Part shown: positions 1,826 through 4,919 of the stretch, one piece after another | Layout of the letters: every line of letters begins with the position of its first letter | Numbering within the stretch: position 1 is the stretch's first letter | Notes under the pieces: model-generated | Told to the model about the DNA's origin: nothing | What the model saw: only the letters and a program-made list of their open reading frames with translations | Database searches by the model: none | NCBI GenBank assembly: GCA_038883775.1 | Contig: JAVZLM010000003.1 | Coordinates: 32,001 to 96,000, forward strand | DNA: 64,000 bases | Reading direction: 5' to 3' | From: Candidatus Bathyarchaeia archaeon | Lineage (GTDB): Archaea > Thermoproteota > Bathyarchaeia > Bathyarchaeales > Bathycorpusculaceae | Position numbers and translations under genes: made by a program

Positions 1826-3547
1826 TTAATATCTTCCCTTACCCTTAACGATAAGTCTTAAGACTAATAGTATTATAAAGGAGATTAATATTAAGAAACC
1901 GCAACCTAAACCCATTTCCAAAGATGTGGCAATAACTTTTCCCTTAACCCAATCAACGAGAACCACAGGAGCCGTTTTAAGTTTGGTAACCGCCAATGTG
2001 GCGCCCGTTTCGCTTACACTTCTTGTAAAAACCATTATTGCGCCAGAAAACATTGAGTATTTAGTTAACGGAAATATTATAGTTCTGAAGACGCCAAAGG
2101 GCTTAGCCCCTAAAGTTCTAGAGGCCTCTTCCAATTCTAAGCCTATCCTTTCAACAGCCGCAGACATAGACCTCACAAAATATGGATACGTAATTGCTAA
2201 ATGCGCAAAGACAAGAAGCCAAACGTCTGGTATGAAGGCTAAAGTTTCCTTCCAAAAGAATTTAAGAGAAACACCCAACGCCACTGATGGAACTATTATT
2301 GGGATATCCACAAGCATATTTAAAGCCGATGAAAAGTTTCCAAGTCTCTTTCTCGCAACTATTATTGCCATGGGCAAACCTATAAGAACGTTCAAAACGG
2401 TTACAACCGCTCCAAGAGAATAGGAGAGTAGGAGACTTTGCCAATAATCTGTCCAAGGCTCTACACCCGCTAGCGCTTTTGACAGCGCATCTGTTGAAAG
2501 GGCTTCAAAAGCTGGAAGCGCCACAAACAACGAGGGAATAAGCACAAGGATAAGGAAGATTAAAAGTGAAGTGCCATTCCGAAGAAGCGTTGCCGAGGAA
2601 TAGCTCAGTTTTCTCTCCAATGTTGGCCAAGCTCCCTTTATTGGCAACTTTAGCCTACTTCCGAGAGTGCGTACTACTACAAAAATTAAACATGAAACAA
2701 TTATGAGGATAAGACTCGCAAAAGTAGTGGAACCCTCGTAGACTGCTTGATTAATCTGGGGCGGTTGAGCTGAAAACGCGTCTTTCATGTTCTGTATGAA
2801 AACGGGTCCATTTTCAAAGACTCCGGCAACCATCATAGTCGCTCCAGTTTCCGAAATTGACCTTGCAAAGGCAAGTATGAACGCTGCAATTAACGAGGGC
2901 TTTATAATTCCAAGCGTAACCGTTCTAGCCGTTGTAAGCGGCGGCGCACCCAAAGTTCTCGACGCCTGCTCATATTCAATTTTATAATCCAGTAAGGCAC
3001 CTACTATGACTCTTACTACAATTGGATAAGAAAAAGTGAAATGTAAAAGAGTGATAAGAAGCCATCCAGGCGAAACGAGTGAACCGCCAAAAAGGGCTGA
3101 AATTCCTTCAGGTTTATACCAGAAGAGAAGAAGCGAATAACCAAGCACAGCCGTGGGCACTATAAAAGGAACATCAGCGAGAGTGTCTAGAAAATTTATC
3201 CATTTAGATCTTCCACGAGCTATAAACCAAGCCATAGGAATCCCCGCTGCAACATCCAAAAGAGAGACTAACGCTGCTATCATGAAGGAGTTTTTCGCAG
3301 CGTTTAGAATGCGAGCTACGAGCTCACCATTTCCTAAAACCTCTCCCATCACATTCCACTTAATAATTATGCCTAAAATCGGAGGTAGCAAAATCAAAGC
3401 AAAAAAAAGTGCAACTGCGGTCAAATAAACTCCATATTTAACCATAGGTTTTGAGGAGAGTGTGTCAAGATTCTCCCTAAGTTTTCTGGGCAAACTTATC
3501 AGCCTAAGTCCATTAACAACTAAACATGCTTCTTTTTTCATTTGCAA
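1826..3547 (-). CDS. ABC transporter permease with two fused TM domains (FbpB/ThiP-like); start uncertain
   Basis: Two EAA loops (EQASRTLGA, EEASRTLGA), duplicated RSI/VSETGAT motif, many TM helices. Confidence 0.9.
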   Translation of the reverse strand: MQMKKEACLVVNGLRLISLPRKLRENLDTLSSKPMVKYGVYLTAVALFFALILLPPILGIIIKWNVMGEVLGNGELVARILNAAKNSFMIAALVSLLDVAAGIPMAWFIARGRSKWINFLDTLADVPFIVPTAVLGYSLLLFWYKPEGISALFGGSLVSPGWLLITLLHFTFSYPIVVRVIVGALLDYKIEYEQASRTLGAPPLTTARTVTLGIIKPSLIAAFILAFARSISETGATMMVAGVFENGPVFIQNMKDAFSAQPPQINQAVYEGSTTFASLILIIVSCLIFVVVRTLGSRLKLPIKGAWPTLERKLSYSSATLLRNGTSLLIFLILVLIPSLFVALPAFEALSTDALSKALAGVEPWTDYWQSLLLSYSLGAVVTVLNVLIGLPMAIIVARKRLGNFSSALNMLVDIPIIVPSVALGVSLKFFWKETLAFIPDVWLLVFAHLAITYPYFVRSMSAAVERIGLELEEASRTLGAKPFGVFRTIIFPLTKYSMFSGAIMVFTRSVSETGATLAVTKLKTAPVVLVDWVKGKVIATSLEMGLGCGFLILISFIILLVLRLIVKGKGRY

Positions 3548-3575
3548 AATTTGCTGATAAGCTTTCCGTATGAAA

Positions 3576-3641
3576 GGTGTCAGTTCGCCCGTCGAGCCCT
3601 ATCATAGCAAAAGCTCTATTGACTCTCTAACTCATCATCCA
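3576..3641 (-). ncRNA. C/D box guide sRNA with two guides
   Basis: Minus strand reads ATGATGA (box C, 3638-3632), gttagagagtcaa, TAGA (D'-like), ATGATAG (C'-like), ggctcgacgggcgaa, CTGA (box D, 3583-3580). Guides are complementary to conserved rRNA motifs UGACUCUCU and CGCCCGUC. TATA-like aaaccctaaaattt lies upstream. Confidence 0.85.
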
Positions 3642-3701
3642 AGAATAAGTGGTCAGTGCATAAATTTTAGGGTTTTGCAAAACAAATTAAAAGCATGTTA
3701 C

Positions 3702-4919
3702 CTAAGGCTTTCCAAGAGTTCCTTCCCACATTTTTTCCAAAAACATTTTCAAATCTTTTTTTGACATTTTTCTTTTACAATTGCCAGAAAAGGCTTGGTA
3801 AGCTTTTGGATTTTCTGCTAATATTCTAACAATTTCAGCAATATCTTTTCTGTCTGCATTATCTATCATGTTAATTGAAGTGGGAAGGTCCAATTCCTCT
3901 AGTAGTCTTTTTACGGCATAAACTCCTTTATAGGCAGCCTTACGTTTCGTTAAACCATTAATGTTTTCGCCTAAGGCAACAGCTACCCGTACTAAAATAT
4001 CTAAATTAACTGGTATATTCCATTCCATTGCATATGGTAAGGCGATTCCACATGCAATTCCATGGTGTATATTATAAAATGCCCCTATGGTGTGTGCAAC
4101 TGCATGTGCCTCCACATCTCCTGTGTTGCCTTCCGAGAAAGCGGCAGCTAATGCTGCTAGTGCCATATTATAGCGAGCCTTAAGATTGGTTCCTTGAAAT
4201 GTTGCGGTACGAATGTTTTCTGAAATCAGTCTTATAGATTCTAAAGCCAGCGCTTGGGTTAATGGAAAAGCAGAAACGGCTAACGCGGATTCTATAGCAT
4301 GCGAGAGCGCATCGATGCCCGTGGCGGCAGTTAATTTGGGAGGTAAAGTTAGCGTCATTAATGGATCAACAATTGCCATTTTAGCGCGGACATTATCGAA
4401 CCAATATTTGACTTTTTCTTCTGGTAAAGTTATGACGGCATCTGGTGTACACTCCGCTCCAGTGCCTGCAGTGGTCGGTATCGTTATAACTGGAACTCCA
4501 ATTTTCTTAAATCCTCTTTTTAAATACTGTTTAATGTTTCCAGGATTAGTTACCGCTTTTCCAACGATTTTTGCTGTATCTAAACTGCTCCCTCCACCAA
4601 TACCAACGACAAAATTAACCATAGTGTTTCTAGCAAAATCCACAGCTTTTTGTACAGACTCCAATGTTGGTTCTGGCACGACTCCGTTATAAATTTCTAC
4701 ATTGAATTCTGCATTTTTAAGTGATTTTAACACATTTTCAAGTAGTCCCGCTTTCTCGATTCCCATGTCAGTTATGATTAAACAGTTCTCTCCAACGCCT
4801 AGTTGATTGGCCTCCACGCCAACCTTTGTAACCGCATTAACACCGAATAAAACTTTTTCCACAGATGAAAAGGTGTATAAAACTTTCTGTGAATCACATT
4901 TCCAATCCATGTGTATCAT
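3702..4919 (-). CDS. Iron-containing alcohol dehydrogenase
   Basis: GGGSSLD, IPTTAGTGAE, GIDALSHAIES, HAVAH...HHG motifs. Confidence 0.93.
   Translation of the reverse strand: MIHMDWKCDSQKVLYTFSSVEKVLFGVNAVTKVGVEANQLGVGENCLIITDMGIEKAGLLENVLKSLKNAEFNVEIYNGVVPEPTLESVQKAVDFARNTMVNFVVGIGGGSSLDTAKIVGKAVTNPGNIKQYLKRGFKKIGVPVITIPTTAGTGAECTPDAVITLPEEKVKYWFDNVRAKMAIVDPLMTLTLPPKLTAATGIDALSHAIESALAVSAFPLTQALALESIRLISENIRTATFQGTNLKARYNMALAALAAAFSEGNTGDVEAHAVAHTIGAFYNIHHGIACGIALPYAMEWNIPVNLDILVRVAVALGENINGLTKRKAAYKGVYAVKRLLEELDLPTSINMIDNADRKDIAEIVRILAENPKAYQAFSGNCKRKMSKKDLKMFLEKMWEGTLGKP

Follow-up and report, generated by a model that had tools for sequence, protein, structure and literature searches.

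The window analysed here, meaning the whole stretch of 64,000 nucleotides taken from contig JAVZLM010000003.1 (positions 32,001 to 96,000), belongs to a Candidatus Bathyarchaeia archaeon of the family Bathycorpusculaceae, whose assembly comprises 1.69 Mb in 28 contigs and is 91% complete with 5% contamination. A short intergenic region separates two genes of the minus strand, one for an Fe-type alcohol dehydrogenase (3702-4919), whose stop codon marks one end of the region, and one for an ABC-transporter permease (1826 to ~3541), whose start marks the other. Within this region, the initial annotation had placed a box C/D RNA at positions 3576 to 3641 with C, D'-like, C'-like and D boxes on the minus strand, and both the coordinates and the box assignments were reproduced from the sequence.

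The boxes follow one another in the order C, D', C' and D over the span 3638-3580, all on the minus strand. The C box AUGAUGA (3638-3632) lies near the 5' end and is followed by the D' spacer GUUAGAGAGUCAA with a length of 13 nt (3631-3619) and by the D' box UAGA (3618-3615), which is non-canonical. A short hairpin of the form GC-UUUU-GC (3614-3607) occupies the space between the D' box and the C' box AUGAUAG (3605-3599), the latter being degenerate. The D spacer GGCUCGACGGGCGAA of 15 nt (3598-3584) then leads to the D box CUGA (3583-3580) near the 3' end. The element therefore possesses the C box RUGAUGA and the D box CUGA by which box C/D RNAs are recognised, as well as internal D' and C' boxes, both in degenerate form, while its spacers of 13 nt (D') and 15 nt (D) compare with about 12 nt in typical archaeal C/D guides.

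A BRE/TATA-like motif, GCAAAACCCUAAAAU / GCAAAACCCTAAAAT, is located at 3678-3664 (minus strand), approximately 30 nt upstream of the C box. A motif with the approximate consensus GCAAAAGCCTTAAGT is found about 30 nt upstream in most of the 56 printed homologues, where the surrounding sequences differ, and it would represent the promoter of the sRNA. The pyrimidine- and T-rich tract directly after the D box (3577-3572, minus strand) may be a 3' end or termination signal, and many homologues have T-rich tracts in this place. In the gap that separates the D box from the permease, the minus strand carries a second, conserved promoter-like motif, GGAAAGCTTATCAGC, some 20 nt ahead of the ATG at 3541 (region 3541-3566). 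This ATG, rather than the TTG at 3547 chosen by the ORF tool, is probably the start of the permease, whose mRNA would then be leaderless, and the motif together with the ATG suggests a separate permease mRNA.

Conservation and rarity of the element

The distribution of the element was determined at several taxonomic levels. A BLAST search with a 101-nt query (E <= 1e-3) recovered the element from 46 of the 61 genomes of the family. With a sequence-only covariance model, the number of genomes with a hit was 69 out of 151 at the level of the order (family: 31 out of 35), 49 out of 151 at the level of the class and 40 out of 151 at the level of the phylum. Column conservation was read from an alignment of 27 family members and pairing counts were taken from 87 aligned homologues. 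In the family alignment, all columns of the C box except the last A are invariant in 27/27 members, with the last A conserved in at least 90%, and the D box CUGA is likewise invariant in 27/27. The GA of the D' box and the UGA of the C' box are invariant, and the U directly after the latter is found in at least 90% of the members. The same alignment shows an invariant core GAGUC in the D' guide, embedded in a wider conserved core GAGAGUC, and an invariant CUCGACGGGC in the D spacer, whereas free variation is seen at the four nucleotides that open the D' spacer and in the hairpin loop. The two GC pairs of the hairpin between the D' and C' boxes are also invariant, although its loop varies in length and sequence and extra pairs are formed in some relatives. 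A proposed covariation between D' position 1 and C' position 6 failed, with 55 of 94 sequences pairing at 1/6 and 83 of 94 having a pair or U-U at 2/5.

It is this conservation pattern, with boxes and guide cores nearly invariant and the rest variable, that is the decisive support at the sequence level for a real sRNA, and we regard it as highly probable that the element is a genuine archaeal box C/D sRNA. The complementarity to rRNA alone is weak evidence, since shuffled guides reached at least nine contiguous pairs including the N+5 position in 2% (D') and 9% (D) of the trials. The strict pattern of four boxes with their spacing is rare in the 1.69-Mb genome, with two matches, of which one is the present locus. 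A copy on contig C26 also fits the pattern. This contig (6151 nt) is collinear throughout with C3:29489-35652 at 87% identity, which is consistent with the 5% contamination; its copy was therefore rejected as a paralogue and is assigned to a co-binned relative. A relaxed C/D scan of the genome yielded 74 candidates. A 9-bp match to rRNA was present in 12, and the promoter motif is missing from most. Those with a 9-bp match to 23S rRNA outside the window, among them G000:C9:49529 and G000:C6:18366 (both minus strand), may be guides or chance matches.

Searches for other targets and for known RNA families complete this picture. No match longer than 7 nt to a tRNA was found, and genome-wide matches of 10 to 11 nt remained within the chance level, so that no better genomic target emerged. 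The Rfam search of the window gave no match at the gathering threshold. On the strand and span of the sRNA, the best C/D match was RF01139 (sR2) with 12.9 bits against a cut-off of 42 and E = 2.8; it extends weakly over the whole element (3578-3642, minus strand) but is below gathering, so that the sRNA is not a member of this family. The fold z-scores lie between -0.14 and -1.76, with one value of +0.58, and are not significant. For expression, the search brought up no RNA run that contains this organism; two raw-read metatranscriptome runs gave 0 reads and are not counted as evidence; nor is one contig run, flagged as probably DNA, which covered 3524-3651 only, at the 90-95% identity of the conserved core of relatives.

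The two guides and their rRNA targets

The initial annotation had described the D guide as complementary to a conserved segment of 16S rRNA, with the N+5 rule placing the methyl group on C1402, and had proposed an alignment with the organism's own rRNA as a check. A partial 16S rRNA is present at the end of contig C9 (L001, G000:C9:81852-82477; model positions 830-1467) and reads CACCGCCCGUCGUUCC in the relevant part. Positions 3 to 11 of the D spacer, counted upstream from the D box (3586-3594, minus strand), form nine contiguous Watson-Crick pairs with its segment CGCCCGUCG, so that the claimed complementarity was borne out on the host's own sequence. G3588, at guide position 5, lies opposite the third nucleotide of CGCCCGUCG, which is C1402 by the N+5 rule; the numbering follows from CCGCCCGTC, which begins at 1399 in the 1542-nt 16S rRNA of E. 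coli. All 21 of the 21 16S fragments read from the family contain the identical target, including G1408, which pairs with guide position 11. Among the 87 aligned homologues, 81 keep at least eight Watson-Crick pairs at this site, and in 82 the CUGA lies exactly five nucleotides downstream of the nucleotide paired with C1402. In all likelihood, the D guide directs the formation of Cm1402 at the top of 16S helix 44.

Guide-target covariation was not seen, both targets being invariant. In another family, guide position 11 is a U, and a matching change at 16S position 1408 was looked for there; G1408 is present in that family too, and only a wobble pair results. The 16S fragments read from the family and from two other families all carry G at the equivalent of E. 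coli A1408. This is the eukaryote-like state, which is associated with lower aminoglycoside sensitivity. A further observation on the 16S genes is that the match stops or splits at about Rfam model position 829/830 in the host genome and in the relatives G031, G029, G040 and G011, often at a contig end, which suggests an insertion (possibly an intron) or a recurrent assembly break.

For the D' guide, a 23S rRNA of the host was searched for in the assembly and is absent, a 10-mer match on contig C10 not being rRNA. The target was consequently read from the relatives whose 23S rRNA covers the site, five out of five, three of them from the same family and two from other families of the order. All five have the helix 69 sequence GUAACUCUGACUCUCUCAAGG with the stretch GGGAGUAACUCUGACUCUCUCAAGGUAGCC. 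Positions 2 to 10 of the D' spacer, counted upstream of the UAGA (3620-3628, minus strand), form nine contiguous pairs with UGACUCUCU of these 23S rRNAs, and G3623, at guide position 5, is opposite the C of UGAC, which is C1920 by the N+5 rule. The complementarity to helix 69 and the C1920 assignment made by the initial annotation were thereby reproduced on the 23S rRNA of five relatives. C1920 was placed by ungapped comparison with E. coli 23S rRNA, where it has the raw index 1918 in the 2902-nt copy used. The pseudouridines 1911, 1915 and 1917 served as landmarks which we take to give the helix 69 cytidine its standard number C1920. The position that Dennis et al. (2015; PMC4644070) give for A1912 in helix 69 agrees with this numbering.

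The C1920 site is kept less strictly than the C1402 site, with at least eight pairs in 49 and at least seven pairs in 70 of the 87 homologues. In 16 of the 87, a CAGA or CUGA box follows a D' guide with one nucleotide less, so that U1921 becomes the N+5 nucleotide, and in three the N+5 position falls on U1923. The D' box itself varies among the relatives, with CAGA, CUGA, AUGA, UUGA and CCGA as variants. The 23S site is therefore less secure than the 16S site, in view of the non-canonical D' box, of a register that in some relatives shifts to U1921 or U1923, and of the partial self-pairing of the guide described below. With these reservations, we consider it moderately likely that the D' guide also directs methylation in helix 69 at C1920.

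More distant homologues differ in the fate of the D' guide. In other orders of the Bathyarchaeia (L232, L234, L236-L239, L241), the C1402 guide is kept and the D' guide is UUCAGCCUU, whose complement in 16S rRNA is AAGGCUGAA, at about position 869 in the region of helix 27. These sequences indicate an evolutionary exchange of guide modules. A homologue from another class, present in two genomes (G377 and G328), has two spacers of the canonical 12 nt each and the D' box CUGA or CGGA. Its D guide is directed to C1402 and its D' guide forms eight pairs with helix 69, with C1920 at the N+5 position and without an internal partner, and the 23S rRNAs of both genomes carry the helix 69 target. That both guide modules were kept across classes would be best explained by the use of both.

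Several observations on the organisation of the rRNA genes were made in passing. The 23S rRNAs of G328 and G377 contain an insertion of about 560 nt directly after helix 69, between ...CUCUCAA and AAGGUAGCC (L265 ~2470-3009; L266 ~4230-4765), which is probably an rRNA intron beside the predicted methylation site. On one contig of a relative (G012:C1), the 16S gene (~1.372 Mb) and the 23S gene (~0.545 Mb) are far apart and hence unlinked, and in G327 and G334, which belong to another family, the two genes are adjacent.

Internal pairing and alternative readings

The D spacer is 15 to 17 nt or longer in the order, and its extra 5' nucleotides are conserved but show no match to 16S rRNA. Instead, they are complementary to the D' guide, with UGACUC opposite GAGUCA in most of the family and ACUCUC opposite GAGAGU in other families. 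In the window, this anti-guide is the GGCUC in the 5' part of the D spacer (3594-3598, minus strand), which is complementary to the GAGUC of the D' guide (3621-3625) with one G-U pair. In 73 of 85 parsed homologues, the D' spacer and the 5' part of the D spacer can form an uninterrupted run of five or more pairs, compared with 11% of within-sequence shuffles, and two lineages have changed on both strands (GAGAGA with UCUCUC; AAGAGUU with GACUCUU). The helix appears in the predicted minimum-energy folds of seven out of eight representatives, with unexceptional energies, the copy in the window folding slightly differently. Within the family, 99% of the helix cells are paired, a count that says little because there is almost no variation. 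We take the guide/anti-guide helix to be real, and it may mask part of the D' guide. One could further imagine that the anti-guide, formed by the extra 3-5 nt of the D spacer and a partial copy of the helix 69 target, acts as a switch in which the closed state would expose the 16S guide only and the open state would free the helix 69 guide. C3594 belongs both to the anti-guide and to the segment that pairs with 16S rRNA, a one-nucleotide overlap through which binding to helix 44 could help to free the helix 69 guide. We hold this switch to be unlikely; if it were true, the modification or chaperoning of both sides of the intersubunit bridge B2a would be coupled. No mention of a self-masked archaeal C/D guide was met in the archaeal C/D sRNA literature compared, and the anti-guide together with the pair of helix 44 and helix 69 guides would offer a simple system for testing guide masking of archaeal C/D RNPs.

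The internal pairing also bears on how many guides are effective. The element could be a real C/D sRNA with effectively a single guide, in which only the D guide is catalytic and forms Cm1402, while the D' region would be a strand of an internal helix closing the C'/D' kink-turn, or a chaperone contact without methylation, and no Cm1920 would be formed. The unequal conservation of the two guides (at least eight pairs in 81/87 for D versus 49/87 for D'), the drift of the N+5 register in 19/87 and the non-canonical D' box are in line with this reading, as are the excess of internal pairing over the shuffles with its two lineages changed on both strands and the orders of the Bathyarchaeia that join the same D guide to a D' guide for 16S rRNA near 869. 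Within the order, however, the core GAGAGUC of the D' guide is retained although the partner strand inside the RNA shifts in register, being UGACUC in one group and ACUCUC in another, and a core that is constant despite a changing partner indicates a constraint outside the RNA. The homologue from another class, which has a canonical D' box and keeps the helix 69 guide without any internal partner, also speaks against a purely internal role, and helix 69 is a documented methylation hotspot in archaea with C1920 as a documented site. A single effective guide is regarded as rather unlikely.

Two other explanations dispute the nature of the element itself. It could be a cis-acting leader of the ABC-transporter permease gene, such as a kink-turn bound by L7Ae for the control of translation. 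In favour of this, the permease start follows on the same strand at a distance of about 40 nt, a permease homologue adjoins the element in 25 of 29 family loci, and L7Ae-mediated regulation has been reported in archaea (PMC5539422). Over all loci, the permease homologue is adjacent in 34 of 56, which leaves 22 of 56 where the sRNA occurs without the permease, and the alcohol dehydrogenase adjoins it in 0 of 56. The permease-free loci, the promoter-like motif of the sRNA and the separate signals of the permease, namely the second promoter-like motif and the probable leaderless ATG, indicate that the sRNA is a gene of its own rather than a permease leader; moreover, the invariant segments are exactly those complementary to rRNA. 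A leader function is thus very improbable. A chance likeness to C/D boxes in an intergenic spacer could draw on the 9-bp matches of 2-9% of the shuffled guides and on the unexceptional fold energies (z -0.1 to -1.8), but the conservation at three taxonomic levels, the specific pattern over boxes and guides and the conserved promoter motif effectively refute it, and its probability is minute.

We therefore favour, as fairly likely, the reading of the element as an independently transcribed dual guide for 16S C1402 and 23S C1920. The proteins needed by a C/D RNP are present in the host, since its genome encodes fibrillarin (PF01269, E 5e-99), Nop5 (PF01798, E 3e-80) and L7Ae (PF01248, E 6e-29), with the fibrillarin and Nop5 genes adjacent on contig C10 and two genes of the L7Ae family. 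From these data we infer a pathway in which the locus would be transcribed independently into an sRNA of about 60-66 nt, which would assemble with L7Ae, Nop5 and fibrillarin into a 2'-O-methyltransferase RNP. In this RNP, the D guide would pair with the top of 16S helix 44 and place a methyl group on C1402, and the D' guide would pair with the 3' strand of 23S helix 69 and place a methyl group on C1920.

Comparison with known guides and methyltransferases

In the archaeal C/D sRNA catalogue of Dennis et al. (2015; PMC4644070), the criterion for a predicted target is at least nine contiguous Watson-Crick pairs including the target nucleotide (N+5). Such a pairing was found here for the D guide on the host's own 16S rRNA and for the D' guide on the 23S rRNA of relatives. 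The same authors count helix 69 among the methylation hotspots and find few targets in helix 44. The sRNA in the window shares with the sRNAs of the catalogue the layout of C, D', C' and D boxes, the N+5 rule, the extent of pairing and a target in the helix 69 hotspot, and it differs from them by its host from the Bathyarchaeia, its spacers of 13 and 15 nt, its D' box UAGA and the D spacer that is partly complementary to the D' guide. According to Lui et al., the precise sites are generally not conserved between groups but the hotspots are, which fits the register drift of the D' guide observed here.

Individual sRNAs with one of the two targets are listed in the supplementary table of Dennis et al. 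For the D' guides of M. maripaludis sR104 and S. acidocaldarius sR20, the predicted target is 23S C2186 (PMC4644070), which corresponds to E. coli C1920 on the basis of A2178 = A1912 and is thus the predicted target of the D' guide described here. Their other guides differ, as that of sR104 has no predicted target and that of sR20 is assigned to 23S U2222, while the sRNA in the window is directed to 16S rRNA. In P. calidifontis, sR25 and a second sRNA listed as sR35 possess a D guide complementary to 16S rRNA around C1389 (PMC4644070), which corresponds to E. coli C1402 on the basis of 1395 = A1408. Both are marked with an asterisk in that listing, meaning a mismatch at the target and a predicted non-productive guide, in contrast to the G-C target pair of the sRNA in the window, and their D' guide is directed to 16S C1349, unlike the one found here.

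A counterpart in terms of targets comes from N. equitans, for which Seistrup et al. report 16S Cm1402 by RiboMeth-seq (PMC5389701). In this organism, sR20 guides 16S Gm1530 as well as 23S Cm1920, and mass spectrometry and RiboMeth-seq confirmed the second of these (PMC5389701). Like the sRNA in the window, sR20 thus has one guide on 16S rRNA and the other on C1920 in 23S helix 69, but its 16S site is Gm1530 near helix 45 rather than C1402, and the likeness considered here is that of the targets. Several further sRNAs with one 16S and one 23S target appear in the table of Dennis et al. (PMC4644070). The remark of the initial annotation that one RNA serving both subunits is notable was hence overstated, and both target sites as well as cross-subunit guide pairs are already known from other archaea. 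The specific combination of C1402 and C1920 was not met in the archaeal C/D sRNA literature compared, and a literature search joining 'Bathyarchaeota' and 'box sRNA', whose coverage is incomplete, returned no publication. The knowledge of how C/D sRNAs work is left unchanged by this sRNA, and its value lies in providing a well-supported C/D guide RNA for the Bathyarchaeia, a large uncultured archaeal class.

In bacteria, Cm1402 is made by RsmI (PMC11542601) and Cm1920 by TlyA (PMC7317525). Both enzymes 2'-O-methylate the same two nucleotides as those predicted here, but they are protein-only and act without a guide RNA. Type II TlyA enzymes have 16S C1409 as a further substrate, and a single agent thereby acts on both helix 44 and helix 69. 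In eukaryotes, yeast snR70 and human SNORD43 are the C/D snoRNAs that guide 2'-O-methylation of the equivalent of C1402, the same universally conserved cytidine; these belong to eukaryotic snoRNPs and are compared with the sRNA in the window by their target. For the universally methylated C1402 of the decoding centre, a predicted RNA guide is conserved across several classes of the Thermoproteota, where bacteria use the protein RsmI.
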